A DNA stretch of 20,951 nucleotides, taken from contig DBDH01000102.1 in assembly GCA_002293455.1 (NCBI GenBank), positions 26,418-47,368 of the forward strand. The letters run 5' to 3'. Made by a program: the position numbers and the translations under genes. Shown here one piece after another: positions 165 to 20,951 of the stretch. The stretch comes from Treponema sp. UBA937. GTDB taxonomy: Bacteria; Spirochaetota; Spirochaetia; Treponematales; Breznakiellaceae. Within the stretch, counting starts at the first letter, position 1. Every line of letters begins with the position of its first letter. The notes below the pieces were generated by a model. It did not search any database. It saw only the letters and a program-made list of their open reading frames with translations, and was not told the DNA's origin.

Positions 165-1514
165 ATGGATAAACATGTTGATTTTACCGTTGAAGACTTA
201 GGGAAACGGACAATTAAATCTCCGATAGAGCTGTCAAAAGTTGCTGGTGATTTTATTGCGAATTATGTCACTGATGAAGAATTGGTCAGGATGGGCATAG
301 ATGTGAAACTTGACAGTCAAGCTCCGCTCAAACGAAGCGATGTTTTTGAAGCTGCCGGTCCCAGGGAAATGATTTACTTTTCCCCCCAGCATGTTCACGC
401 GGGAATTGTCACCTGCGGCGGCCTTTGCCCGGGACTAAATGATGTTATCCGCGCCATTGTGCGCTGTCTTTGGCAGCGTTACGGCGTCCGGCGGATTTCC
501 GGCATCCAATACGGTTATAAGGGCTTTCTTCCGGAATACGGATACAAGACAATAGAGCTGAATCCTCCGGTTGTAGATGATATTCACAAGATCGGCGGTA
601 CGATTTTGGGAACGGCCCGCGGCGGCGGGAAGCAGGTTACGGAAATTGTTGACTGCATGGAACGGATGAACCTCAACATGCTTTTTACTGTCGGCGGCGA
701 TGGAACACAAAAAGGCGCGCTCGATATTGCGGAAGAAATCCAAAAGCGGAAGCTGAAGATGGCTGTCATCGGCATTCCGAAAACCGTTGATAATGATTTT
801 TCGTTTATTGATAAATCGTTCGGATTTGATACGGCGGTAACCGAGGCTGTGGGAGTGGTAACCGCCGCACACATGGAAGCTCATTCGCAGATCAACGGCA
901 TCGGTCTTGTAAAACTGATGGGCCGGGAAGCCGGGTTCATCGCGGCGCATACCGCGTTGGCAAGCCATGAAGTAAACTTTGTCCTTATTCCCGAAGTGCC
1001 TTTCGATCTTGACGGCCCCAACGGACTTTTGCATCATCTGGAAATTCGGCTTGCAAGAAGGAATCATGCCGTAATCGTTGTGGCGGAAGGAGCAATGCAG
1101 GATAAACTTGTTACAGATATTAAACACGACGAATCAGGAAACCTGAAGATGGAAGACGTAGGACGTTACTTAAAGGATGAGATACAGAAACATTTTAATG
1201 ATATGGGCCTGGAAATCAACCTGAAATACATCGACCCAAGTTATATGATACGGTCAGCTCCGGCCGCCCCCGTCGATTCAATCTACTGTGAACGTTTGGG
1301 GAACGCGGCGGCTCACGCGGCAATGGCCGGAAAAACTAAGTGTCTCATCGGTTTGATCAATAATGAATTTGTTCATCTGCCTATGAAGGCGGCTGTTTCC
1401 AAAAGAAGCTGTGTCGATCCGGAAGGAAACCTCTGGCGGGATACGTTGGACGCAACACAGCAGCCTTTCCTTATGAAGAATGACTGTGCCGTGCCGTCAG
1501 GTACGGAAGCGTAA
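165..1514 (+). CDS. pfk: 6-phosphofructokinase, long (about 450 aa) spirochete-type PFK
   Basis: 449-aa ORF with PFK signatures: GGLCPGLN nucleotide-binding loop, [22 protein letters not shown]. An AGGGGG lies about 12 nt upstream of the ATG. The G in GGDGT suggests ATP-dependent rather than PPi-dependent; this is an inference. Confidence 0.85.
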
Positions 1515-1536
1515 AACCGGAAACAGGGAACTATTC

Positions 1537-2868
1537 ATGACTTTTACGGCTGTGGGGAGCCCCCGGCATGATCTCAATGCCGGGGATATCGGTAAATATG
1601 TGACAGAAGCCTTACCGCTGGCTCTCAGCGAAGTTGACGGTTCAGGGAAAGTCCTCGTTCTTCCCCCTGACGGAACCCGCATTCATTCAAAGGCGGGGTT
1701 TATCACGGATTTGCTTTCACAGCAGCTTTCCCGCGAAGACAGGCTGGGAGCTATTACGCCTGCCCTGGGAACTCACATGCCCATGAACGAAGATGAACTC
1801 CGGCGGATGTTTCCGAAAAGTCCCCTTGACAAATTTGTCGCGCATAACTGGCGTAACGATGTCGTTGAATTGGGAAGAATAGAATCGGACTGGATTCATT
1901 CGATTTCCGAAGGAGCGGCGGATTACGATTGCCCTATCGAGGTGAACCGCCTTCTTTGCGACGGGGATTTTTCTATGATCGTTTCCATTGGGCAGGTAGT
2001 GCCGCACGAAGTAATGGGGATGGCGAATCATCTCAAGAACATTTTTATCGGAACCGGCGGCAAAGAGATTATCGATAAAAGCCATTATCTGGGGGCCGTA
2101 TACGGCATGGAACATATCATGGGACATATCGATACGCCGGTCCGCTCTGTTCTGGATGAAGGTTACTTGCGATTCGGCAGCCGGATGCCGCCCATCCTTT
2201 GGATACTGACCGTGGTAGGACCGAGAACCCCGGAAGAAGCGCTGCATGTTGGGCAGCCTGCCGGATCGCTGGCCCTTAGGGGGCTTTTTATCGGGTTCGG
2301 GAGGCATTGCTACGAAGAGGCGGCGCTCTTAGCCCAAAAAGTGAATATAACCTTATTGACCGAGCCTGTAAAAAAAGCGCTCGTGTATCTTGATCCGCGC
2401 GAGTACCGGACGACATGGCTGGGAAATAAATCGATATACAGAACCCGCATGGCTATGGCTGATGAGGGAGAACTCATCATCTTGGCGCCCGGTTTGGAAA
2501 AATTCGGCGAAGATGCCGGCATCGACGCGCTTATCCGCAAGCATGGATACCGTCCGGGCGCGGAAATCCGGGCGGCGGTAAAACAAGATGCCGAACTGGC
2601 TGACTCGCTGAGCGCCGCCGCCCATCTTATTCACGGGTCAAGCGAAGGCCGTTTTTCCATCCGCTATTGTCCGGGCCCGAAAATCAGCAGGGAAGAAATA
2701 GAATCCGCGGGCTTTGAGTGGGGCAGTCTGGATGAAATGATCAAACAGTATCCGCTTGAAAACATACATTCCGGCTGGAACACCATTGAAGGCGAAAAAA
2801 TCTTTTTTGTTTCAAATCCGGCGCTCGGCCTTTGGGCGGAAGAAAAGCGGTTTAGAAATGAAGAATAA
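1537..2868 (+). CDS. LarA-superfamily (lactate racemase-like, DUF2088) protein; function uncertain
   Basis: ORF track starts at 1480, but the ATG at 1537 has AGGGAA 7 nt upstream and lies just after the pfk stop. Blocks parallel LarA from memory: VLVLPPDGTRIHS vs IVIISSDHTRPVP; ITPALGTHMPMNEDEL vs LVATGFHRPSTHEEL; IFIGTGGKEI vs FAGFSGGRKS. The His of the LarA DHTR motif is absent. Confidence 0.5.
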   Translation: MTFTAVGSPRHDLNAGDIGKYVTEALPLALSEVDGSGKVLVLPPDGTRIHSKAGFITDLLSQQLSREDRLGAITPALGTHMPMNEDELRRMFPKSPLDKFVAHNWRNDVVELGRIESDWIHSISEGAADYDCPIEVNRLLCDGDFSMIVSIGQVVPHEVMGMANHLKNIFIGTGGKEIIDKSHYLGAVYGMEHIMGHIDTPVRSVLDEGYLRFGSRMPPILWILTVVGPRTPEEALHVGQPAGSLALRGLFIGFGRHCYEEAALLAQKVNITLLTEPVKKALVYLDPREYRTTWLGNKSIYRTRMAMADEGELIILAPGLEKFGEDAGIDALIRKHGYRPGAEIRAAVKQDAELADSLSAAAHLIHGSSEGRFSIRYCPGPKISREEIESAGFEWGSLDEMIKQYPLENIHSGWNTIEGEKIFFVSNPALGLWAEEKRFRNEE

Positions 2869-8995: not shown

Positions 8996-10255
8996 CTACA
9001 TTTTTAACTTATCCAATGTCAAGTTTTTGAATTTTTTTATCGATTCCGCTCCCGGATCCAAAACAAGAGCGCTTTCGCAGTCAGACAAAGCCTTGGGATA
9101 ATCATTAAGATGAAAATACGCCTGCCCTCTTCTGAACAAGCAATAAGATTGATAAGGATTAATCTCTAAAGAATACGTAAAATCATCGATAGCCTTCACA
9201 TAATCCTGCAGCACTGAATAAACAATTCCCCGGTAATACGGAGCTCTGTAAGCCTTGGGGTCGAATTCCAAAACCCTGGAAAAATCATCGATGGCTTCCT
9301 GATATTTTGACTGAGCAAAAAAAGCCATTCCGCGGTGTTTATAAATAAGGGCCTTAATCACATCCGGCGGATTCAACTCAAATATTTTGCTGTATATTTT
9401 TACCGCCATGCCGAATTCGTTTTTATTGTGCGCGTACAGAGCATTCAGAAGCATATCATCAATGGAAGCGCCTGACGCGGGATAATCCAGACTTGAAGGA
9501 TCGATAAACGTATCATCTTCACGATACTTATCGTCTTGGAGAGCTGCTTTCTCATCAAAAAAGATAATCTCATCCGAAAAGTTATCAACTTTATGATAAA
9601 AAGTACCTCTTCGTTTATCCAACTGCCGGTTTAATCGGCGCTGATAGTCCCGAATTTCCTGAAATATGGTATCCGCCAATGAAAGAGACGCGTTTACCGC
9701 CGCCAGTTTTCGTTTTAAAGGAGTATCAAAAGGATTAAAATCAGCTTTGTACACCAATTCATGTTCAACTTCCGCCCACGCGTCCTGCAAAATCGTTCTA
9801 ATTTGAACTTCCGCGGCGTCCGTACCAAAATCTCCATATTTTTCCAAAATATGCGGAGGGATTTTTATGATGACATGCGTTGATTCATAGCCGAACTCTT
9901 TAAAAGAATAGTCCGATCCTTTGCGTTCTATCTCGATGATCTCAAAATTTTTTTTCAGGATTTCTTCAACATGACGCAGATCTTCCATGAAGGGACAAAT
10001 AACCCGAATTCCCATAAGATCGGCAACAAAAGGCTGTTCATCCTTGGAAGGAGAATTCTTTAACAGTCTGATATATTTTTTAAAAAAACTATTAAAATCC
10101 TTTACGCGGCTCTTAATGGAAGGAAGCGAAGGAAGCTCTTTGAGCAACAATGCAATGTCTTCGTGAAGTTCTTTTACGACGAGTATTCTTACATCACTAT
10201 GTTTATAAAATTTTTCTTGCAGCCGGCCTTTGTCAGGTAATTCTCCATTTTGCAT
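8996..10255 (-). CDS. RelA/SpoT-family small alarmone synthetase (SAS) domain fused to C-terminal TPR repeats
   Basis: Synthetase core LMGIRVICPF...YESTHVIIKIP...AEVQIRTILQDAWAEVEHELVYK matches the RelQ/RelP-type EIQIRT..W..EH..YK signature; no HD hydrolase domain. The C-terminal ~150 aa have 3-4 TPR units (AIDDF...LE.DP.....YYRG). Start taken at the ATG at 10255 (AAGGG 8 nt upstream); the ORF track's GTG at 10264 is an alternative. AT-rich by eye. Confidence 0.65.
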   Translation of the reverse strand: MQNGELPDKGRLQEKFYKHSDVRILVVKELHEDIALLLKELPSLPSIKSRVKDFNSFFKKYIRLLKNSPSKDEQPFVADLMGIRVICPFMEDLRHVEEILKKNFEIIEIERKGSDYSFKEFGYESTHVIIKIPPHILEKYGDFGTDAAEVQIRTILQDAWAEVEHELVYKADFNPFDTPLKRKLAAVNASLSLADTIFQEIRDYQRRLNRQLDKRRGTFYHKVDNFSDEIIFFDEKAALQDDKYREDDTFIDPSSLDYPASGASIDDMLLNALYAHNKNEFGMAVKIYSKIFELNPPDVIKALIYKHRGMAFFAQSKYQEAIDDFSRVLEFDPKAYRAPYYRGIVYSVLQDYVKAIDDFTYSLEINPYQSYCLFRRGQAYFHLNDYPKALSDCESALVLDPGAESIKKFKNLTLDKLKM

Positions 10256-10276
10256 CAATAACACCCTTCAGATGAA

Positions 10277-10461: not shown

Positions 10462-11490
10462 CTATTCGGCGCTGTCCTCGCCAGCCGGAGTGAAACTGTT
10501 TTCTGTGGCCTGTTTCTGGCCTTCAAGATACCGGAGTACCTGGGCTTCACCAAACTGGGACATTTCATAAGCCTTTTTCTGGGCTTCCCGGTCTTTGATG
10601 ATATTCCACAAGCCTTCGTCATCAATATCCCGATTATCATCCAATACTGCCCTATCGTAGATGATCCTTACGTCTTTGAAGTAAGCGATAAAATCGCCGC
10701 CTTCATGAGAAGCGTCCCTCTGAACAAGGAATCCGCCGAACTTTACGAAAGGAGTTGACTTGGGATACAAGGGATACAGCCGGAGTTCACGGTTGCGGAC
10801 TTCCTGCACATACTGGGGATTATTCCACACGAGTTCTTTCCAGCCGTCATAACGAAGATAACCCATGAACGTGGTCTGCTCGTTGCCTTCGGCATCGATA
10901 AGGATGGTGCTCAAAGCATGGGGAAAGTTAAGACCATACGCATTCACCGCAATGGCTTTAATAGTGCCGACATTCTTTACGACGCCGTATCCGTCTTCAA
11001 AACGGCTGGGATCGCTCATTGAAGCGTCTTCCGACGCGGTGATATTTCCCTGATCATCTACTTCCGCGGGAAGCTCAAAAGCGGGAATATCAAACGGCGG
11101 TTTAATAACGGCCCAAGATTGGAACGGTTCCACGGGGAAATGCACTCTTACGCCCATAACAGTGCCATACCGCGTAGAAGCAGCCTCTGAGGTATAGCTC
11201 AAAACCTGATTGGAAGTAGTCCTGGAAGAAGATGCAAGCACTACATCCCAGTTAGGAATGGCGAGAGAAGTCTTCATCACAGATCGTTGCTCTTCTGTGA
11301 AGCCGCTGCCGGCGACATTGGAAAAATCCATCATGGTTGCACGGTTTTGGTTGGGATTGTCGTCCTGATCATCGGGCATAGTGTCAATGTCTGCAATAAG
11401 CTTACCGAAATCGATCAAAACAGCCTCATCCGCAAACAAAACTCCCACAGTCAACACAACGATGGCAAAAAGAATGAACATCCGTTTCAT
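10462..11490 (-). CDS. flaA: flagellar filament outer-layer (sheath) protein FlaA-like, secreted
   Basis: Signal peptide MKRMFILFAIVVLTVGVLFA. Blocks recalled from spirochete FlaA (VLIDFGKL, NWDVVLASSSR, RVHFPVEPFQSWAVIKPPFDIPAFE, GLNFPHALS, DGWKELVWNNPQYVQEVRNREL). Monocistronic with its own sigma70 promoter and terminator. RBS GGAG 6 nt upstream. Confidence 0.55.
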   Translation of the reverse strand: MKRMFILFAIVVLTVGVLFADEAVLIDFGKLIADIDTMPDDQDDNPNQNRATMMDFSNVAGSGFTEEQRSVMKTSLAIPNWDVVLASSSRTTSNQVLSYTSEAASTRYGTVMGVRVHFPVEPFQSWAVIKPPFDIPAFELPAEVDDQGNITASEDASMSDPSRFEDGYGVVKNVGTIKAIAVNAYGLNFPHALSTILIDAEGNEQTTFMGYLRYDGWKELVWNNPQYVQEVRNRELRLYPLYPKSTPFVKFGGFLVQRDASHEGGDFIAYFKDVRIIYDRAVLDDNRDIDDEGLWNIIKDREAQKKAYEMSQFGEAQVLRYLEGQKQATENSFTPAGEDSAE

Positions 11491-11540: not shown

Positions 11541-11568
11541 AGTATACGAGATACGTCTAATTTGTCAA
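11541..11568 (-). promoter_or_regulatory. sigma70-like promoter for flaA-like gene (TTGACA-16nt-TATACT)
   Basis: On the minus strand: TTGACA (rc of 11563-11568), 16-nt spacer, TATACT (rc of 11541-11546). About 40-nt leader to a GGAG RBS. Confidence 0.5.
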
Positions 11569-11587: not shown

Positions 11588-12079
11588 TCATATATATTTA
11601 TCATATATTGAAATATTCTGTAAAAAAACTTCATTTCCGTTAATGAACAACATGATGTTGTCAACGTAAGCGAAATTCCGTTTTATTCCCGAAACAAGGG
11701 TAAAAAGGTTTTCGTTGGCATCCTTTGTTCCGTTAAGCGGCGCCAGCGCGGCGCCTTCGGAAAGGTTAATATACACATTTTTGCCCCGGCAAAAAAGCGA
11801 TTCCAGCCTCGTTCCCTCCGGAAAAAGCGGCGCCGTATCGAGGCCTGCCGGTCCTAGAAGAACTTCATCAACATATCTTGTTAAAGATTCTTCCCCGGTT
11901 TCCGCGGCGGGAATCATCCTATCTTCGATTACAGGGATTCCATCCTTAATTGTGTAAAAAACCATGGTGTATCTGTCATTGCCGGTCACAAGGAAATCCG
12001 CCAGGGCTGCCGCTCCCAGCAAAATCAAACAGCACAGCAAAAACACCGGTTTACGCCAAAAAAAAACCTTAGAACTCAT
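11588..12079 (-). CDS. GerMN-domain (sporulation/germination-like) lipoprotein or secreted protein, last gene of the operon
   Basis: N-terminal hydrophobic segment with Cys (LLCCLILLGAAALA). GerMN-like pattern: YTMVFY...IPVIEDRMIP...LTRYVDEVLLGP...LFPEGTRL...NVYINLS. ATGA overlap with the upstream amidase stop. Confidence 0.55.
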   Translation of the reverse strand: MSSKVFFWRKPVFLLCCLILLGAAALADFLVTGNDRYTMVFYTIKDGIPVIEDRMIPAAETGEESLTRYVDEVLLGPAGLDTAPLFPEGTRLESLFCRGKNVYINLSEGAALAPLNGTKDANENLFTLVSGIKRNFAYVDNIMLFINGNEVFLQNISIYDKYI

Positions 12080-13161
12080 TGAATTTGAGTAAATCCTCCG
12101 GACCGTTCAAATCTACCGACAAAATCCACGATACCATTATACAACGCATCGGAAAGCTTCTGCAAGTAGTCCGCGTCTAGAAGCAGTTTCGCGTCATCTA
12201 TATTCGATACAAAGCCAAGTTCCACCAAAACGGAAGGCATCCGCGCGTTTCTTACGACAAACCATTCTTCGGCCTTTATGCCGCGGGATGGTCCGTAGCT
12301 CCCGATATTCCGATCAAACTGCGTCATGATGGACTGGGCGATCATGATGCTTTCGGTGGTAAATTCTTCTTCCATCATCAAATTAAGGATGTCAAGGACT
12401 TCGGAACTTCCTTCAAATGATTCTTTGTCGATCACCGTTCTGCGGTATTCCGGCGAAAGGTACCATACTTCATATCCTCTCGCCTGTTTATTGAACGACG
12501 CGTTGGCGTGAACGGAGACAAAAACGATGGCTTCGTTATCTTTCAGCGGCACCGAGTGAGCTTCAAGCACCCGGTCTTCAAGCGTTGGAAAGGTATCGCT
12601 GTCTCTGGTCATGATAATGCGTTTATCGGGATACGCGGAGGTCAGCCGCTTGTTAAGACCTGTTGATACGTGTAACACAATATCTTTTTCCACCACCTTT
12701 ACTGTTTTTCCATCAATTACATGACTTCCTACGGCTCCGCTGTCCCGTCCGCCGTGTCCGGGATCGATAATGATCGCGGCAATCCGGAGGCTGTCCGCGT
12801 CCAATATTACGGAATTTTCCAAAGCTGATGTAATATGTCCGGCAAAGGCTTCGGGAAAACAGAGAACGCCGTTTTCCAGGTAAGGATTCGGGATTCGGAT
12901 TAAATCTCTGCCGTCCACTATCGCAAGAGAATTATCTCCTCTGTTCCCTGTCTGAAACGCAATGCGATGATTTCCCAAAAGGAGCGTTCCGGATTGAAAA
13001 AAAGGATCCCATTGAAGGCTTTCCGCCCCGGTTTTTGAGAGAAGTTCCTCTGTGTTCAAAGTTACTTCGGAATTTTCTCCGTACAACGGAAGCGGAAAAA
13101 GAACGGAAACCGTTATCAATATGAGAAGAAATGTATGGTTACGAAGATCCTTCTTCATCAA
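12076..13161 (-). CDS. N-acetylmuramoyl-L-alanine amidase (Amidase_3 family, AmiC/CwlD-like), secreted
   Basis: Signal peptide. Catalytic-domain signature IIDPGHGGRDSGAVG...VFVSVHANA...GYEVWY. The frequent GerMN plus amidase pairing supports both calls. Confidence 0.8.
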   Translation of the reverse strand: MMKKDLRNHTFLLILITVSVLFPLPLYGENSEVTLNTEELLSKTGAESLQWDPFFQSGTLLLGNHRIAFQTGNRGDNSLAIVDGRDLIRIPNPYLENGVLCFPEAFAGHITSALENSVILDADSLRIAAIIIDPGHGGRDSGAVGSHVIDGKTVKVVEKDIVLHVSTGLNKRLTSAYPDKRIIMTRDSDTFPTLEDRVLEAHSVPLKDNEAIVFVSVHANASFNKQARGYEVWYLSPEYRRTVIDKESFEGSSEVLDILNLMMEEEFTTESIMIAQSIMTQFDRNIGSYGPSRGIKAEEWFVVRNARMPSVLVELGFVSNIDDAKLLLDADYLQKLSDALYNGIVDFVGRFERSGGFTQIQ

Positions 13162-13179
13162 ACTTTTACCTCTGTGTAA

Positions 13180-14766
13180 TTATCTCCGCGGCAGCATATC
13201 CAAAAAATATACCGCTCCCTGATAACCGCCGCGGATAAGGCTTTGCCAGAATTCCCTGCCAAGAAAGCTTTCATTTTGAAGATCGGCATTTTTGGGAAAT
13301 TTCCATGAAATTTCCTCCGCGATTTCCAAGGTATAGCCGCTAAGTTTTCTTAGCGCGGAGAAAACCTGAGCGATATTTCGGCCCATGTAATCGAGCGGGT
13401 TCCTCTGTGTAAATTCCGGAAAAGGATAAACCATTAAGTTTTTTTCTTTGTTTGACAAAAAATTACACAGAGGAAGATTATTCAGATGCTTGCGCGTATT
13501 TTCATCAAGAGGAAACGCGTTCGGAGGAAAATCTGTCCAAGTTTGCAGGAATTGTTCTGTTTCCTCGTTCGGCGCTTCCAAACGGATAAGGATGCTTTGA
13601 GCCGCCGTTTCCGCGGTGTGGACAGCTTCTTCACGGCCTGGAGCGGCTGTTATGATGTTTCCGCACTTACTGACATTATTTTCCGGAAACGCAACATGGC
13701 TTCCCTTTTCTATCCGTAAAAAAACATCTTTGACACGCGGCATTTTTTCCGCGTCATCTATTCCTTGAATCGATTGTACGATTCCCGGAATGGAAATAAA
13801 GGCCCGCTCCGCGCTGGTCCATTGTTTTGACGGTTCCAGGCAGTCCGGCTTTTTCCCCAGACACACCATAATCGCGGCCTTTGCGGGTTCTACGCCGGAT
13901 GCATACGGATACGTCCATCCCGACATGTATCCGCCTGAAAGCCGTGCCGCGATTTCCCCGATCATGGGGCCGCGCTTTGTCAATTTTATGTCGCCTTTGG
14001 CGGCTCCGTTCTGGATTCCCAAAACGTTTACACCCTGTGTAAAAACCTCGATAATCGCTTTTTGCTTGTCTTCATCAATATTCGTGGGCATGGTGTGGCC
14101 CATTTCAATAAAACAGGGCGGGAAAAAGATGTGCCGGTCCGCCAGGCCGCAAATCGTAATGTTTCCTTCGTAAACGACGGCATCTACCGAAAATTCGGGG
14201 CCGTCCATATATTCTTCGATGATCGCGCGTCCGGTCCGGGAAAATTTCAGGGCATCACGCGCCGCGCCGATCAAATCTTCGGAAGAAGAAACTTTCCGGC
14301 ATCCTCTGGAACCCATGTTGTCCACGGGCTTAACCACCGCGGGAAAATCGAAAGGGAGGATAAAACCATCACCGGGAACGGCATCAATTATCGTAAATTC
14401 CGGAGACGGAATTCCGGCTTTTTTAAAACGGCCGCGCATCCGCTGTTTGTCGGAAGCGTCAAGAGCGCTTTCGTAGGAGATTCCCGGAAGCCCAAGTTTT
14501 TCGGCCGTCCAGGCGACAGAAGCGGAAAAATCGGTTCCCGCGGTCATGATTCCGCTTAACCCGCCGTCATCTTTCAGGGAGCGGGCAAAATGCTCAATGG
14601 CTTGTATATCTTTTAAATCGATGCGTTCAAAATGATCCGCCAAATGTACGCAGGGAGCTTTTGGATCGGCGTCCAGTACAAAGGTTTCCAGGTCCATGTT
14701 TTTCGCAATCGTAATAGCGGGGCCCTGCATGACCCCCGCTCCAAGGATGATTATCCGTTCTTTCAT
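13180..14766 (-). CDS. ATP-grasp domain enzyme (carboxylate-amine ligase type) with ~200-aa C-terminal extension of unknown function
   Basis: N-terminal Rossmann pre-ATP-grasp module (RIIILGAGVMQGP). Central ATP-grasp features (AVVKPVDNMGSRGCRKV, IIEEYMDGPEFSVDAVV, GEIAARLSGGY). The C-terminal ~200 aa (from about FISIPGI) have no recognisable motifs. Confidence 0.55.
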   Translation of the reverse strand: MKERIIILGAGVMQGPAITIAKNMDLETFVLDADPKAPCVHLADHFERIDLKDIQAIEHFARSLKDDGGLSGIMTAGTDFSASVAWTAEKLGLPGISYESALDASDKQRMRGRFKKAGIPSPEFTIIDAVPGDGFILPFDFPAVVKPVDNMGSRGCRKVSSSEDLIGAARDALKFSRTGRAIIEEYMDGPEFSVDAVVYEGNITICGLADRHIFFPPCFIEMGHTMPTNIDEDKQKAIIEVFTQGVNVLGIQNGAAKGDIKLTKRGPMIGEIAARLSGGYMSGWTYPYASGVEPAKAAIMVCLGKKPDCLEPSKQWTSAERAFISIPGIVQSIQGIDDAEKMPRVKDVFLRIEKGSHVAFPENNVSKCGNIITAAPGREEAVHTAETAAQSILIRLEAPNEETEQFLQTWTDFPPNAFPLDENTRKHLNNLPLCNFLSNKEKNLMVYPFPEFTQRNPLDYMGRNIAQVFSALRKLSGYTLEIAEEISWKFPKNADLQNESFLGREFWQSLIRGGYQGAVYFLDMLPRR

Positions 14767-14845
14767 GTAAACCCCAAAATCAATTAACAGTGATCAATGA
14801 GCATTGAGCAAATGACAAATAGAACATCTTACTTTTGTTATTTGT

Positions 14846-16690
14846 TCATGTCTCTTTCACCGCGTATGCTTCAAACGTATCTCCCAGGCCGAAACATCTG
14901 CTGAGCCGGTTTACGGCATTATACATCATTCCTTCGTTTTTGTGTATAAAGGGAAAACGTTCGGGATGATGTCCGGTAACGGCTATTTTTTCTACATCAA
15001 GATGATACGGTTTCAGCGCATTCATTGTCTTCCGCGGATTCCAAACGCTCCAGTGATCCGCGGGACTTTTATCGAAAAAATCATTTCTGTTCCGAAGGGC
15101 TGAAATCCCCGTTCCCGACGGCGTTGAAAAAGCAAAAACCCCACCGGGCTTTAACCATGCCGCTATTTTTTTCAAAGCCGCCCTTGTGTCTTCAAAATGT
15201 TCGATAACATACCACAGGGAAATAACATCGAAGCCGTCTTTTAATACATCTTTTGGAAGATCAATGTCCGGGAAAAAACCCTGAAAGGCCGGGATTCCAA
15301 GCGTTTCAGTTACATAGTGTACGGCGTCTTGGGATGGATCGATTCCGAAGGCATCGAAGCCTTCGTCTTTGGCGGCCAGGAGAAAGGGACCATAAGCACA
15401 GCCAATGTCCAAAAGCCGGAACGGTTCGGCAGATGCTGTATGACGCAATATTTCTATAATATGTAACATTCTGTTTTTTGCCATGTTAAGCAGATGTAGA
15501 AAATCCTCCAGATATGTTTTTCCGTACTGTTTTTTATAATCGCCGAAAAAATAATCTTCCGTGTATTGTACGGAAGAAGGATAAAGCCTTAACATGTATT
15601 CCATAGAACAGTAATTGCAGCGCTTGTATGTCCGGTCATAAAAGCGCGCAGCAATAGGATGATTCAACGATGACGCGCCGCACACCGGACATGTCCGGGA
15701 AATGTTAACATCAAAAGCTCTTATTATGTCAATGAAAGATTGACGCGGAACTGTGTCCAGTTTTTGTTCGCAACATATTTTTTTTGACGCGGCAATAATC
15801 TTTTCGAGAAATTTTTTCTTGAAATGAGAAAAGTTTTTTTCCGCATTCCGCAATGTTTTTAAAGCGCGATTCTTTGTTCCTAATGTTACAAAACCGGTTC
15901 CTCTGGCAAGCTGTTCGTGGTACCTTGTAGGCGACGTGATAAGAACCGGAACGCCCGCGTGAAGCGCTTCAAAGGCGGTGATTCCAAAGTGAGTAAGCAC
16001 AAGATCGTATTGATACAGCGTTTCTCTTAAACCGGAAAAAGGCCGCACAATATTGATATTCGGCGGCAAAGTTTTTTCATCCGAAACAGGATTTTTACGT
16101 ACAACATCGATAATGATATTTTCTGTTGAAGCAAGTTCCATTGATAACAAGAGACTCATGTCGGAGGCGTCTTCCATGCCGAAGACAGAAAGAATCTTAA
16201 AAGGATTTATTTCAGAATATTGAAAAAATTGTGCGCGGCGCTTCTTCGGAAGGGAAAGCAAGGATGGGCCGGAGATATTTGCTTTGCTCCGCCCGGAAGG
16301 CCCCGGAAGAATATCGATAAGGAAATCAAACGCATCTCTTTTTGAGCCGCCTTCATCGACGGCTATTACTGGAGCAATGTTTGACCAGAAAACGTAATCC
16401 GCTTCACTGCTCTGAAAATTATCCAGGATAATGAACGACCATTTTTCTTTTTCCGGTTCAGATGAAACAATCCATTCAGGATCGATTGTAGACAAAAAAG
16501 GAAATTGCCGCGCCGCAGGATCGCTAAGGATTTCATCACGAATAAAAATATATGCTTCAATTCCCGCCTGCCGTAATTCCCCGGCATACGTTACAGAGCG
16601 GACAAGATGCCCTCCCCCTTTTCCTTTTTCAACGCGGGGAACAAAGAGGATTTTTCCAACAGTGTTTGTTTTTTCTTTTTTTAATTTCAT
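14846..16690 (-). CDS. Fusion: PseG/SpsG-like UDP-sugar hydrolase (GT-B-like) N-domain plus Zn-ribbon plus class I SAM-dependent methyltransferase C-domain
   Basis: N-terminus GKILFVPRVEKGKGGGHLVRSVTYAGEL resembles the PseG G-x-G-H-x-x-R motif. Mid-protein CPVCG...CNYCS Zn-ribbon. The C-terminus has methyltransferase motif I LLDIGCAYGPF and a post-I acidic residue (GIDPS). Its start is 1 nt after the upstream cytidylyltransferase stop. Confidence 0.55.
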   Translation of the reverse strand: MKLKKEKTNTVGKILFVPRVEKGKGGGHLVRSVTYAGELRQAGIEAYIFIRDEILSDPAARQFPFLSTIDPEWIVSSEPEKEKWSFIILDNFQSSEADYVFWSNIAPVIAVDEGGSKRDAFDFLIDILPGPSGRSKANISGPSLLSLPKKRRAQFFQYSEINPFKILSVFGMEDASDMSLLLSMELASTENIIIDVVRKNPVSDEKTLPPNINIVRPFSGLRETLYQYDLVLTHFGITAFEALHAGVPVLITSPTRYHEQLARGTGFVTLGTKNRALKTLRNAEKNFSHFKKKFLEKIIAASKKICCEQKLDTVPRQSFIDIIRAFDVNISRTCPVCGASSLNHPIAARFYDRTYKRCNYCSMEYMLRLYPSSVQYTEDYFFGDYKKQYGKTYLEDFLHLLNMAKNRMLHIIEILRHTASAEPFRLLDIGCAYGPFLLAAKDEGFDAFGIDPSQDAVHYVTETLGIPAFQGFFPDIDLPKDVLKDGFDVISLWYVIEHFEDTRAALKKIAAWLKPGGVFAFSTPSGTGISALRNRNDFFDKSPADHWSVWNPRKTMNALKPYHLDVEKIAVTGHHPERFPFIHKNEGMMYNAVNRLSRCFGLGDTFEAYAVKET

Positions 16691-16691
16691 A

Positions 16692-17369
16692 TTACGAAAA
16701 AAGTTCCTTGTGACATTTAATAATCATTTCACCGAAAGCGGGATGTATCACGCCGGTATTCAAAGCATCATACAGACGCTGGGCTTTAGTATAATCTTCC
16801 ATGGTATCAACGGTAATCCGTACTTCGGGATGCTGCCATTTCAAAGGAGGCAAAGGCCTGTGAAGGGAAAAGGTTTCCGGATGATGATACAAATATGGAC
16901 AGACATGTTCCCGTTCCGCCGGAAGGGACGCTTCCTTTTCGGCTTTGAGAAGTGCTTCGGCTTTAACCGATTCAATTCCGGCGCCGTGAGGAATACAGGC
17001 ATATCCGGCATAATCCGCGTGAAGAACGCTTGCTTCTTCATGCAGAAGATTCGCGGCATCGGCAAAGACAAAAGGATTGTCTCCTGTAGCGCGGATAATG
17101 CGCTCAGGCTTATAGACGCGGATAACATCACAGTAACGCGCAAGAACATCGTGTTTGGAACCGGCCGCGATTTCAAATCCGCCTTCTTTGGCAAGAGGTT
17201 CAAACGTTTTGTAACTGTCTTCCGGGCAGGCAAGCACAAAAATATCGGCGTGAATGTTTTTCAAGGCTTCCATAACGCGGAAAATGAGCGGTTTTCCGCC
17301 TAAGGGAAGCATCGTTTTTTGGGGAAGCCTGGAAGAATCAAGCCTTGCCTGGAGAATAAGGGCCGTCAT
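16692..17369 (-). CDS. acylneuraminate/nonulosonate cytidylyltransferase (SpsF/PseF-like, CTP_transf_3 family)
   Basis: LILQARLDSSRLPQKTMLPLGGKPLI matches the SpsF/NeuA N-terminal nucleotide-binding motif, plus GDNPFV. Start placed at the second ATG (17369) for an ATGA overlap with the upstream gene's TGA; the ORF track starts at 17387. Confidence 0.7.
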   Translation of the reverse strand: MTALILQARLDSSRLPQKTMLPLGGKPLIFRVMEALKNIHADIFVLACPEDSYKTFEPLAKEGGFEIAAGSKHDVLARYCDVIRVYKPERIIRATGDNPFVFADAANLLHEEASVLHADYAGYACIPHGAGIESVKAEALLKAEKEASLPAEREHVCPYLYHHPETFSLHRPLPPLKWQHPEVRITVDTMEDYTKAQRLYDALNTGVIHPAFGEMIIKCHKELFS

Positions 17370-18359
17370 AGAGCGGGTTTTTCCCATCGTTCTATAAGTT
17401 TGCGGGCATCACACTTAAAGCGGTACTTGTTGATTTCTACCCATTTCCGGGCGGCGAAAAAATCTTCCCAGTCTTCAAAAGGATTATCGCGAAACCGTAA
17501 CATATAAGAAGGGCAGCGCCGCAGGGGAATATGCGCGCTGTCTCCCCGGTACACGGGGGCAAGATTCTTAAGGTAAAAACGTTTGTAACTTTCTTCTACC
17601 GTTGAATCTTCCGATGGAATATCGCCGTCATAGGACATTCTCACAAGCTGAGTGCCCGCGATTTCCTCGCCCCAAAGCCAAGAACGAAATCCAAAATCCG
17701 CAAACTGCCAATGGGAATTGGAAAGCGTCTTGTCAAAACCGCCAAGCCGGATAAAACGTTCCCTGTCATAAATGCCGATACCGTCAAAAGGATAGAGCGT
17801 CATCTCCCCTTCCGTGTTTAGCGCGGAAGGAACTGTTTTTACGGAATCTTTAAAATACGCGGGCGACATTATGGTAGGAAGCGTTTCAAAATGACTGTTC
17901 TGAATAACAGGAACCGTACAAAGTCTTTTATATACTGATGTATCATCTCCCGATTCTGACGGCTTTTCGTTCAGCATCCGTTTGGCCATTTTCGCGGCTC
18001 CGCCGCCGTGAAGAATCCTGATATCATTCCATAACACAAAAAATAAAGAACCGGTAAGTTCGGACACCGCGAGGTTAACCTGTTCCCCTACAGAAACAGC
18101 TTGTTTCAAAAGAATAAATTTTACCGACGGAAAACGGATGGAAAGGTCTTCAACATCGTAGCGTTCCTCCGGTCCTTCCAGCGAAATAATGTAATCGAAG
18201 CCGTTTTTCTCCAATTCCTGAAAAAGCGTACGCCGCGGATAACGCCCGCCGCGGTTTAGGAGAACAGCCGACAATCCGCTGTTCCCGGCTCTTTGAATTC
18301 CGCCCACCACCGTATAAGAAGGCAGCGAATGATTAAAAGTTGTAGGTATAGTATTCATC
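17366..18359 (-). CDS. putative glycosyltransferase, GT-A (GT2-like) fold; start uncertain (ORF track extends to 18457)
   Basis: C-terminal GT2-like motif block (GIYDRERFIRLGGFDKTL...ADFGFRSWLWG). The 5-prime end would overlap the conserved SPASM-cysteine region of the upstream gene if started at 18457, so the ATG at 18359 (27-nt overlap) is favoured. No clear RBS at any candidate start. Confidence 0.4.
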
Positions 18360-19925
18360 GCATACCGCACATAAGGGCGGATATTTTTTATCCGCATGGG
18401 CAAGGTATATTTCCATACCCGTTTCCCAAATTGATTCAAGTGAATCACGAAAGACATTTCCTAAAACCGGACTGCCCGGAGCAGTCAATACTTCTTTGCA
18501 CAGAGGAACAGTTCCGTCAATCAAAATAGATACATCCCTCATACAATGCCAGCAAGGATTTCTGTTGATGGGAGATAAATCCGATGCTTGCAGTTTTTCC
18601 CGCGTTCCGCAAAAATCATCATATTTTTGCACGATGATGTTTACGCCGCGTTCCTTCCATCGGCGGTAAAACTGTTCGAGATCATCTTCATAGCCTTTTA
18701 CGCGGACAGCCTGAACGTAAGTATCCTTGGGAAAAAGCTGAAAGAGTTTTTCCGCGGTCTGACGCGCTTCCGTAAAACCGGGGCCGCGGATTTCTTTGTA
18801 ACGGGAAGGATTGTCTGAATCCAAGGATACAATCCACGAAAGCGGCGCTTCTCCGTTCAGCCTGGCTCCCGCTTTTTTTGCCATGAAAGCAATCTGTTCC
18901 AATTCCGCTTCAATCCAGCCGATGCCGGAAGTTTCGATAATCAAAGATAAAGCAGGACGCGCCAATACCGCCTGAATCAATTCCAGCTTTTGAGGGTGAA
19001 GCGCGGTTTCCCCCCAAAGGGAAAGATCGATTACGGCATCTCCCGAAAAGGCAATAACGCGGTCAAGAAGCGTTTCAAATTGATTAACATCCATAAAATC
19101 CCGGCGTTCAAGGATTGATGTTCCATCATGTTTTCCAAAATTAGGATAAGGGCAGATGGAGCATTCCTGCGGGCAGGGGCCGGAAACCTGAACGGCATAA
19201 AAAGCCGGCAAAGTCCGCAAAGCGGGAACATTGTTTTCGATTATTTCCGCCGCGTTTTCTGTACCGGACAATCCGGCATCGATAAGCCGTTTTAAGAGCA
19301 GCATGTTTCTTTTTGAATCGGCAGTCAGGCTCAAGCGGTATCCCCGTAAATCCACCGGGGAAATTTCAGTTTCAATATCGAAAGCATTGATGTCCTTTTG
19401 CAAGACCGAAAAGATGCAGTCGCGTTCGACAGGGCCGTCCGCATCGCCAAGAATTTTTGAAAGAATTCCGGCGGTTCCGCGGCAAAGTATTTCCGGCGCC
19501 ATCCCGTAAGGCCAGCCGTCGGCATACGAATATTCGGCAGCGTATTGCGTGTGCCGCTTGTATATTGCCAGAGCCATGTCAGGATCAAGCAAAGGAGCGT
19601 CAGCCCAGGCAAAAAAAGTATGATCGAACTGTTCCCCTTCTTTGGAAATGCATTCCAGAAGCGCCCGTTTTGTCCAGGAATCCTTACTGATTACATCGAT
19701 TTGCGGAGAAATGGATTTACAAGGCCCATCATCTTGTAATAAGAGAAGACACTTTGAAACATCGGGAAACGACCTCGCCCTTTCCAAAGCCTTTTCCAGG
19801 GCATTTTTCCCGCCGAATACCGGTTCCGCCGCAAAATGATTTAACTGTCCGCCATAAAGCACCACAAGATTATTCATACTTTCACAGTATCGGCAATTAG
19901 CAAGGAGCAATTGAGGCTGTTTCAT
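18333..19925 (-). CDS. Fusion: cytidylyltransferase-like (CTP_transf_3-like, probably degenerate) N-domain plus radical SAM domain with C-terminal SPASM/twitch cysteines
   Basis: CPQECSICPY gives a CxxxCxxC radical-SAM cluster (about 19150-19195). The C-terminus CWHCMRD...PLCKE...CAVCDEYY is SPASM-like. The N-terminal ~230 aa parallel SpsF-type cytidylyltransferases (LVVLYGGQLNHFAAEPVFGGKNAL; ADAPLLDPDMALAI) but lack the R-x-x-S-x-R-L-P-x-K signature. The ORF-track start is TTG at 19949; the first ATG at 19925 has GAGGAA about 10 nt upstream. Confidence 0.6.
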   Translation of the reverse strand: MKQPQLLLANCRYCESMNNLVVLYGGQLNHFAAEPVFGGKNALEKALERARSFPDVSKCLLLLQDDGPCKSISPQIDVISKDSWTKRALLECISKEGEQFDHTFFAWADAPLLDPDMALAIYKRHTQYAAEYSYADGWPYGMAPEILCRGTAGILSKILGDADGPVERDCIFSVLQKDINAFDIETEISPVDLRGYRLSLTADSKRNMLLLKRLIDAGLSGTENAAEIIENNVPALRTLPAFYAVQVSGPCPQECSICPYPNFGKHDGTSILERRDFMDVNQFETLLDRVIAFSGDAVIDLSLWGETALHPQKLELIQAVLARPALSLIIETSGIGWIEAELEQIAFMAKKAGARLNGEAPLSWIVSLDSDNPSRYKEIRGPGFTEARQTAEKLFQLFPKDTYVQAVRVKGYEDDLEQFYRRWKERGVNIIVQKYDDFCGTREKLQASDLSPINRNPCWHCMRDVSILIDGTVPLCKEVLTAPGSPVLGNVFRDSLESIWETGMEIYLAHADKKYPPLCAVCDEYYTYNF

Positions 19926-20139
19926 CCTCTGTGTTCCTCTGTGTAACAATTTCTTTTGCCGTGATCAATTGGCAATCCTCTATTGAACAAAACATATCCG
20001 GCTGGTAAGATAAGGAATGACATTTTTCCTACATTTTGTAATATGAAGGTCATCGGTTTGTGTTCTCTGCATCTCAGCCGTATTCAGCTTCTAATACATT
20101 AAAGTCAAGTATTTTTTGTCAATTAACATGAGAGGTTAT

Positions 20140-20951
20140 ATGCGTTCGTTAGGTATCAATATTGGATCAACAAGTTTAAAGATGGTGATGGCGGAGGATA
20201 CGCTCCCGGTTTGGAGCGCGGCGCTTCCCCATGAAGGGGATTTCGCCGCGGTTGTGCATAAGTTATTGGCGGAAGGTCATATCCCCGAAGGTATCCCAAC
20301 TCTTGTTACCGGAAATGAAGGCCGCTTTATGTTTGACGCGGCGGGAACGCTGGAGCCGCTTTGCGTAGAAGCGGCTCTTAAAGCCTTGGGCTTAAAGGCC
20401 GACGCGGTAGTCTCGATGGGAGGTGAGGACCTTGTCGTCTATTCTCTCGATAAAGACGGAAAGATTATCAATAACTTTTCCGGAAACAAATGCGCTTCGG
20501 GAACCGGGGAATTCCTGAAACAGCAGCTTGCCCGCATGGACATGACCCTTGCCGATATTGACAAAGTGCCTGACACCGCAAAGGTGCATTCGCTTTCTAC
20601 CCGCTGTTCGGTTTTTATGAAGAGCGATTGTACCCACCGCCTCAACAAGCGCGAAGCCACGAAAGACGACATCGTTTTGTCTCTGTCCGATGTCATGGCC
20701 GTAAAGGTTATCGACTTTTTGAAGCGCGCGCGCGTGAACTCTGGAAAGGTTGTGCTCACGGGGGGCATCACCCTTAACCGCCATATTATCCGCTTTATCC
20801 GGGAAAAAGCTCCGGGGATTGAGTTCATCATCCCCGAAACGGCTCCTGTGTTTGAAGCGCTTGGAGCGGCGAATCTTGCCATAACACTCGGAACGCCGCT
20901 TCCCCCGGTTGATAATCTTTTAAAGCCGAACGCCATCCGCTTTGATACGCT
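20140..20951 (+). CDS. BadF/BadG/BcrA/BcrD-type ATPase (CoA-substrate-specific enzyme activase, HgdC-like), 5-prime partial; runs off the window end
   Basis: Translated by hand from the ATG at 20140 (GAGAGG 6 nt upstream) with no stop before 20951. LGINIGSTSLKMV and NKCASGTGEFL are the two hallmark ATP-binding motifs of this family. Absent from the ORF track because it has no in-window stop. Confidence 0.6.
   Translation, partial: MRSLGINIGSTSLKMVMAEDTLPVWSAALPHEGDFAAVVHKLLAEGHIPEGIPTLVTGNEGRFMFDAAGTLEPLCVEAALKALGLKADAVVSMGGEDLVVYSLDKDGKIINNFSGNKCASGTGEFLKQQLARMDMTLADIDKVPDTAKVHSLSTRCSVFMKSDCTHRLNKREATKDDIVLSLSDVMAVKVIDFLKRARVNSGKVVLTGGITLNRHIIRFIREKAPGIEFIIPETAPVFEALGAANLAITLGTPLPPVDNLLKPNAIRFDT

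Follow-up and report, generated by a model that had tools for sequence, protein, structure and literature searches.

What does a protein do when one half of it is a nucleotidyltransferase without its catalytic loop and the other half is a radical S-adenosylmethionine (SAM) enzyme, and what is its gene doing upstream of the gene for the flagellar sheath protein FlaA? We addressed this question for a gene in a 20,951-nucleotide stretch of DNA from Treponema sp. UBA937 (GCA_002293455.1, contig DBDH01000102.1, positions 26,418 to 47,368; the whole stretch is called the window, and positions are counted from its first letter). A preliminary description, made from the sequence alone, read the gene as a radical SAM/SPASM enzyme fused to a degenerate cytidylyltransferase-like domain and did not recognize the fusion as a characterized enzyme. 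We found that this three-part architecture of pseudo-cytidylyltransferase, radical SAM core, and auxiliary domain is borne out by a family match, by domain hits, and by a confident structural model. We also found that the radical SAM site, intact here, has been lost in about half of the family.

Over its full length, the protein fits the NCBIfam model TIGR04321, "spiro-SPASM protein" (E = 4.5e-180; 599.7 bits against a cutoff of 250; model positions 2 to 510 of 510). When the halves were scored separately, the C-terminal half reached 370 bits and the N-terminal half 249.2 bits, slightly below the whole-protein cutoff of 250. The domain fusion is therefore already catalogued, and what stands of its reported novelty is that no characterized homolog was found, the best solved sequence relative being BtrN (E = 1.9e-11). 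A large protein collection gave 1,593 matches (more than 1,500 homologs at an E value of ≤0.001), and a scan of all 50%-identity representatives gave 340 clusters at an E value of ≤1e-30, nearly all about 500 residues long and aligned end to end. All homologs labeled by their source go under "spiro-SPASM protein" or "radical SAM domain protein" and come from Treponema, Breznakiella, Leadbettera, or unclassified Spirochaetia. The spirochete FlaA encoded in the window (PF04620; E = 2.3e-71) fits this occurrence. Three longer members (P0238, P0132, and P0267) were scanned for informative additional domains, and none was found. The window protein has the length and domain order of TIGR04321, and public databases already contain a sequence 100% identical to it. 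It is an ordinary member of a named, uncharacterized family, with no feature that sets it apart. A literature search for "spiro-SPASM" found no paper, and searches of the spirochete, radical SAM, flagellin, and pseudaminic acid literature found nothing on the spiro-SPASM protein.

The open reading frame spans 18333..19949 on the minus strand, and its TTG codon at 19949 is almost certainly not the real start. The ATG at 19877 (MNNLVVLYGG...) is where homologs and the TIGR04321 model start. Our family alignment consists of 138 sequences, the query and 137 full-length family representatives taken at the 50% identity level, and 130 of them have Met1. Because of this, we take the coding sequence to be 18333..19877 (minus strand), which by translation gives 514 residues and a stop. 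Residue numbers refer to the 514-residue form; adding 24 gives the numbering of the 538-residue open reading frame.

Residues 1 to 215 (19233..19877, minus strand) form a degenerate cytidylyltransferase-like domain of the SpsF/PseF type. As the preliminary description had proposed, the domain is nucleotidyltransferase-like: hhalign aligned it, at 90% probability, with the family to which the cytidylyltransferase two genes downstream belongs (E = 1.6e-6, 192 columns). A search of the window protein with PF02348 gave no match. The expected signature is indeed degenerate. At the P-loop position, YGGQLNHFAAEP (19821..19856, minus strand) stands in place of the QARxxSSRLPxK motif that binds the phosphates of cytidine triphosphate (CTP), with a deletion of four residues, so that the loop of the downstream enzyme, QARLDSSRLPQK, aligns with YGGQLNH, a four-residue gap, and FAAEP. 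The Arg and Lys of this loop contact the CTP phosphates in cytidine monophosphate (CMP)-sugar synthetases. SpsF/PseF-type cytidylyltransferases (PF02348; Protein Data Bank [PDB] entry 6OEW from Leptospira borgpetersenii) have this Arg/Lys CTP-binding loop; in the window protein it is deleted. The Arg/Lys motif (ARxxSxRLPxK) was found in none of the 138 aligned sequences, and thus the degeneracy of the domain is ancestral. An active but divergent nucleotidyltransferase was considered and rejected, since the loop is missing in all 138.

Other parts of the domain have been kept. The DxP nucleotidyltransferase motif, D93-A-P95 (19593..19601, minus strand), aligns with GDNP of the downstream enzyme and is conserved at 93% for D93 and 96% for P95; with it, the domain retains a nucleotidyltransferase (glycosyltransferase A [GT-A]-like) fold. 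Also kept are an AEY..ADG.P.G..PE lobe, an ER(D/E) motif, and an R-x-T-x-D motif. In the CMP-sugar synthetase class, the retained lobe forms the dimer interface and the sugar pocket. We concluded that the N-terminal domain is a paralog of the adjacent active cytidylyltransferase that has lost the CTP-phosphate-binding loop and kept the DxP and sugar/dimer-lobe motifs. With this loop deleted and no match to PF02348, it is almost certainly not a transferase.

The rest of the protein has the makings of a radical SAM enzyme. An AlphaFold2 model built from 146 sequences is of high quality (predicted local distance difference test score [pLDDT], 93.9; predicted template modeling score, 0.92). Residues 216 to 420 (18618..19232, minus strand) form the partial-barrel core with the GGE-type motif W288-G289-E290, and the cluster motif CPQECSIC (19152..19175, minus strand) supplies C235, C239, and C242. 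The hallmarks of the radical SAM superfamily, namely CX3CX2C, a GGE-type SAM motif, and a partial triosephosphate isomerase barrel, are thus all present, and the SAM-side residues W288 and S351 accompany the Cys triad.

Residues 421 to 514 (18333..18617, minus strand) form a truncated SPASM domain. The preliminary description had noted SPASM-like auxiliary-cluster cysteines; these are present, and the Pfam SPASM hidden Markov model is passed (30.2 bits against 21.5), but a full SPASM domain did not hold up. The complete seven-Cys pattern of PF13186/TIGR04085 (CX9-15GX4C, gap, CX2CX5CX3C, gap, C) is absent. Of that pattern, just C442-X12-G455-X4-C460 and C503-X2-C506 occur in conserved form, which is the first half of the SPASM motif, and the protein ends eight residues past C506. 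The four cysteines lie on the minus strand at 18552-18554 (C442), 18498-18500 (C460), 18369-18371 (C503), and 18360-18362 (C506) and are 97 to 100% conserved, with and without the radical SAM triad alike; C445 is Leu in most members. A truncated SPASM-like domain with four Cys and one auxiliary cluster is what defines a twitch domain, and VPLC and CxxC of the window protein align with the twitch segment of BtrN. Since only four Cys are conserved, with BtrN-like spacing, the protein is predicted to hold one auxiliary cluster, not two. From their conservation and spacing, the four cysteines would suffice for one auxiliary [4Fe-4S] cluster. The family name therefore implies a SPASM domain, yet the domain is a four-Cys, one-cluster, twitch-like remnant.

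Known enzymes provide only partial parallels. BtrN, a 2-deoxy-scyllo-inosamine dehydrogenase and twitch enzyme (PDB 4M7T/4M7S), is about 250 residues long, lacks a nucleotidyltransferase domain, and is about 16 to 20% identical to the window protein. Neither BlsE, a cytosylglucuronate decarboxylase (PDB 7VOB), nor DesII (PDB 8HZV/8HZY) has a fused nucleotide-recognition domain, and a profile search gave no significant sequence similarity of the window protein to either.

We then asked how the radical SAM triad is distributed in the family. Among the 138 sequences, CX3CX2C occurs in 64 and a CX4-7CX2C variant in 5, and 69 lack a Cys triad altogether. Parsimony on a neighbor-joining tree built without the motif columns puts the changes of triad state, from a triad-bearing root, at no fewer than 21, a lower bound; the sequences are mostly metagenomic. 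The triad state can differ between two sequences that are 63% identical, as in P0369 (...CSSECTYCPY...) and P0332 (...EEGECIYSPY...), whose operons are the same; P0389 and P0336, also about 63% identical, are another such pair. The conservation of the rest of the protein is the same with and without the triad. This holds for D93, P95, H109, G121, P123, G125, N164, E169, D176, and R181 in the N-terminal domain; for G289, E290, E315, T316, D353, Y360, Q389, R392, and K418 in the remainder; and for P436, R439, the four twitch cysteines, and D507-E508 at the C terminus. Entropies with versus without the triad were 2.51 versus 2.48 for the N-terminal domain, 1.89 versus 1.82 for the twitch domain, and 2.20 versus 2.34 for the barrel, where the members without the triad are slightly more variable. 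Beyond the triad itself, only P245, W288, and S351 are specific to the triad-bearing members. As a qualitative result, many independent losses of the triad under continued constraint look robust.

The decay of W288 and S351 suggests that the SAM site has truly been lost, not that one set of ligands replaced another. We looked for a compensating conserved Cys column in the members without the triad and found none. Alternative cluster ligands in these members were rejected on both grounds. Since the triad is missing from about half of the family, in members that keep the N-terminal domain, barrel, and twitch motifs, presenting a substrate to the radical SAM site cannot be the sole conserved job of the N-terminal domain. 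The repeated loss of the triad calls for some function independent of radical chemistry.

These data raise the possibility that the spiro-SPASM protein is mainly noncatalytic: a pseudo-cytidylyltransferase or scaffold with a structural or redox-sensing Fe-S cluster, working as a partner of the cytidylyltransferase, the GT-A-fold protein described below, or both, with radical SAM activity as an optional extra that happens to survive in this lineage. The frequency of triad loss from a triad-bearing root, the divergence in triad state between close relatives, the confinement of decay to the triad loop, P245, W288, and S351, the identical operon in triad-less members, and the retention of the lobe that forms the dimer interface and sugar pocket all agree with such a subunit. 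However, the triad is kept in 40 of the 40 aligned homologs at least 56% identical to the window protein, together with the SAM-side residues, which indicates selection for catalysis in this clade. We regard a mainly noncatalytic protein as possible but doubtful.

Where, then, might the radical chemistry be directed? We compared 80 related loci; a single genome scan returned only relatives at least 50% identical, mostly from termite-gut Treponema. As far as the contigs reach, these loci share one gene order: spiro-SPASM, GT-A-fold protein, cytidylyltransferase, PseG-like/methyltransferase protein, ATP-grasp ligase, amidase, GerMN protein, and FlaA. The same string occurs in members about 35 to 45% identical to the window protein, including triad-less members. 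In the window, the upstream gene is divergent (plus strand, from about 20152), and the spiro-SPASM gene therefore opens the minus-strand gene string. It stands at the head of an operon found across Treponema, and its product is cytoplasmic.

The second gene (17366..18358, minus strand) encodes a 330-residue protein that begins at a conserved MNTIPT. This start and the stop of the spiro-SPASM gene overlap by 26 nucleotides (translational coupling), and the two genes are adjacent in 78 of the 80 loci. The protein has no Pfam or NCBIfam family, profile searches of PDB and Pfam gave nothing significant, and its GT-A fold was identified from the predicted structure alone: the AlphaFold model (pLDDT, 84.4) has polypeptide GalNAc-transferases as its best PDB fold matches (E ~1e-10; template modeling scores of 0.5 to 0.6). 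Nearly all sources name it a hypothetical protein, and one UniRef entry calls it "Glycosyl transferase family 2." It has WND at the position of the DxD/DxH metal motif, which would suit a metal-independent CMP-sugar donor. Judging from the modeled fold, this protein may represent a new protein O-glycosyltransferase family. In one triad-less lineage, a block of small genes with an integrase and a reverse transcriptase (prophage- or retron-like) directly follows the spiro-SPASM gene and occupies the usual site of the GT-A partner (L082, 9940-17632; L083, 8400-16323).

The third gene (16692..17387, minus strand), present in 70 of the 80 loci, is the intact SpsF/PseF-type cytidylyltransferase that had been placed two genes downstream, correctly: it encodes 231 residues with CTP_transf_3 (PF02348; E = 1.4e-26) and the QARLDSSRLPQK motif. 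The fourth (14846..16690, minus strand) encodes a 614-residue fusion of a PseG-like GT-B domain with a class I SAM methyltransferase (Methyltransf_23; E = 2.7e-23). Elsewhere in Treponema, some lineages have the cytidylyltransferase and the PseG-like/methyltransferase protein joined in one chain of 824 to 831 residues (c-drJIUU, 12512-14986; L084, 12479-14974), and this gene fusion supports a common pathway. The fifth gene (13180..14766, minus strand) encodes a 528-residue ATP-grasp carboxylate-amine ligase of the L-amino-acid-ligase type (LAL_C2, E = 2e-17; ATP-grasp_4, E = 1.6e-16). Pfam matches identify the next two as an Amidase_3 protein (12076-13161, minus strand) and a GerMN-domain protein (11588-12079, minus strand), and FlaA follows (10462-11490, minus strand). 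The Amidase_3-GerMN-FlaA synteny is seen in 42 to 44 of the 80 loci, a count limited by contig ends, and also in distant loci.

This set of genes fits the chemistry of a known flagellin glycan. Two reports (PMC13439194 and PMC9481697, both citing Kurniyati 2017) describe the flagellin glycan of T. denticola as a pseudaminic-type nonulosonate bearing a 2-methoxy-4,5,6-trihydroxyhexanoyl N-acyl group and as essential to filament assembly. To make such a glycan, a cell needs a cytidylyltransferase, an O-methyltransferase, an amide-forming ligase, and an enzyme for a redox or deoxygenation step, and the genes next to flaA encode the same set; we therefore place the spiro-SPASM protein in glycan tailoring. 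With moderate confidence, we suggest that it tailors the flagellin nonulosonate glycan. More specifically, we propose that it carries out a BtrN/BlsE-type radical tailoring of a nucleotide-linked sugar acid of this glycan and has a second role independent of the radical SAM site, a combination to which we give about an even chance.

According to this model, the protein of this organism would be an active radical SAM enzyme that cleaves SAM to a 5′-deoxyadenosyl radical. The radical would take a hydrogen from a carbon of the nucleotide-linked sugar acid, the auxiliary cluster would accept an electron as in BtrN, and the outcome would be oxidation, dehydration/deoxygenation, epimerization, or decarboxylation. 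The likeliest substrate would be an intermediate of the flagellin nonulosonic acid glycan or its N-acyl side chain. In the rest of the operon, the cytidylyltransferase would activate this substrate, the methyltransferase methylate it, the ATP-grasp ligase acylate it, and the GT-A protein transfer it.

The preliminary description had proposed that the dead domain holds a CMP-activated nonulosonic acid in place for radical chemistry; this is possible, and the content of the operon (PseG-like protein, cytidylyltransferase, methyltransferase, ATP-grasp ligase, and FlaA) is compatible with it. The dead nucleotidyltransferase domain could thus bind the CMP or sugar moiety, or it could pair with its active paralog in an enzyme/pseudoenzyme arrangement like that of GMPPA and GMPPB. 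In GMPPA-GMPPB and eIF2B epsilon/gamma, inactive nucleotidyltransferase paralogs partner or regulate active ones. The retained motifs of the N-terminal domain sit in the dimer/sugar-pocket lobe, which suggests such pairing. The window protein differs from these systems in carrying its inactive module on the same chain as an Fe-S enzyme, and its pairing with the active enzyme is hypothetical. A nonradical second role of this kind would explain why the protein is retained intact in lineages without the radical SAM cysteines.

A related possibility reverses the weight of the two roles: the spiro-SPASM protein would be a bifunctional protein whose universal function is that of a nonradical pseudo-cytidylyltransferase/Fe-S subunit in flagellin glycan assembly, partnering the cytidylyltransferase or the GT-A protein, and whose radical tailoring (the N-acyl-nonulosonate might undergo 3-deoxygenation or oxidation, for instance) is optional and was lost more than 20 times independently. 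We think this rather unlikely. If it were true, species-specific structures of the flagellin glycan could be predicted from whether a protein has the triad.

The position of the operon also allows a different target. Amidase_3 and GerMN always lie between the sugar genes and flaA, and the GT-A partner resembles generic GT2/GT27 enzymes, as might be expected if the operon modified a cell envelope component (peptidoglycan, glycolipid, or periplasmic glycan) needed for periplasmic flagella instead of the flagellin glycan. However, the nonulosonate/SpsF-type cytidylyltransferase, PseG-like protein, methyltransferase, and ATP-grasp ligase match the known flagellin glycan chemistry (PMC13439194), and we consider an envelope target improbable. 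Four loci (L060, L061, L069, and L071) have only the spiro-SPASM, GT-A, and cytidylyltransferase genes ahead of the amidase, with the methyltransferase and ATP-grasp genes absent; they fit either target.

The model of the window protein also resembles peptide-modifying enzymes. Its top fold matches include SuiB, SkfB, CteB, ChlB, and anSME, and with a recognized Pfam SPASM domain, this could point to a peptide maturase of the anSME type or of the type that acts on ribosomally synthesized and posttranslationally modified peptides (RiPPs), with flagellin or FlaA, for example, as its target. Against this, the N-terminal domain has a nucleotidyltransferase fold and there is no RiPP recognition element (RRE) or leader-binding domain, only one auxiliary-cluster Cys set is present, and the closest sequence relative is the sugar-modifying BtrN. 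Nor does a small open reading frame flank the gene among the called genes of the loci examined, and the upstream neighbor varies (in the window an acyl-CoA-dehydratase-activase-like gene, in L081 and L082 XseA, and in L085 STAS). We find a peptide maturase very improbable and rejected it for want of an RRE, a conserved precursor open reading frame, and a second auxiliary Cys set.

Several observations weigh against radical tailoring of the flagellin glycan. Half of the family lacks the triad, and hence radical chemistry is not the universal function of the family. The PseG match is weak (TIGR03590; E = 9.2e-6, residues 24 to 251, 25 bits against a cutoff of 153), the core Pse genes PseB, PseC, and PseI are not within the window, and the substrate is deduced from the gene neighborhood only. 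A Maf-type flagellin glycosyltransferase has been reported from T. denticola (bioRxiv 10.1101/2023.12.03.569772), which makes the role of the GT-A partner less certain, and the peptidoglycan amidase and GerMN genes in the operon may point to a cell wall context. The literature search found no biochemical or genetic data for any family member.

Published annotations offer candidates for the orthologs in T. pallidum and T. denticola. The T. pallidum annotation makes TPASS_0285 an Fe-S binding (SPASM) protein and TPASS_0289 a SAM methyltransferase (PMC5951579), and a reannotation merges TP0284 with TP0285, TP0286 with TP0287, and TP0288 with TP0289 (PMC3265458). T. pallidum thus also appears to have a SPASM-annotated gene close by a methyltransferase gene, and the resulting TP0284_285 to TP0288_289 would be compatible with a module of three genes. 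In T. denticola, flaA (TDE1712) is cotranscribed with four upstream open reading frames from TDE1716 (PMC9481697); TDE1716 may be a spiro-SPASM ortholog. In the window, the best promoter-like site of the region, of the sigma-70 type, lies in the gap between the GerMN gene and flaA (11541-11568, minus strand; TTGACA, 16 nucleotides, TATACT; 11 of 12 positions), and flaA may have its own promoter besides read-through from the upstream genes.

The remaining features of the window lie on either side of the operon. Directly downstream of flaA is a gene for a RelA/SpoT-domain protein (small-alarmone-synthetase-like) with TPR repeats (8996-10264, minus strand), syntenic in 37 of the 80 loci. Upstream of the spiro-SPASM gene, the divergent gene is a partial acyl-CoA dehydratase activase gene encoding a BcrA/HgdC-type ATPase (20152-20951, plus strand; TIGR00241, E = 2.4e-28), whose position is not kept in other loci. 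Farther away, positions 1480-2868 (plus strand) encode a 462-residue protein whose sole match is the LarA N-terminal domain (PF09861; E = 2.6e-10); the gene overlaps the end of a phosphofructokinase gene by 35 nucleotides.

Among named homologs, the family is specific to spirochetes, and it is tightly linked to flaA. If a reaction could be assigned to the spiro-SPASM protein, this would fill a gap in a pathway required for motility, and the few known twitch radical SAM enzymes would gain a member directed at nucleotide sugars. Of the new points, the most interesting is that the radical SAM site has eroded across the family. The repeated loss of its cysteines, with the rest of the protein fully retained, is a clean natural experiment on catalytic versus structural roles in a radical SAM protein.

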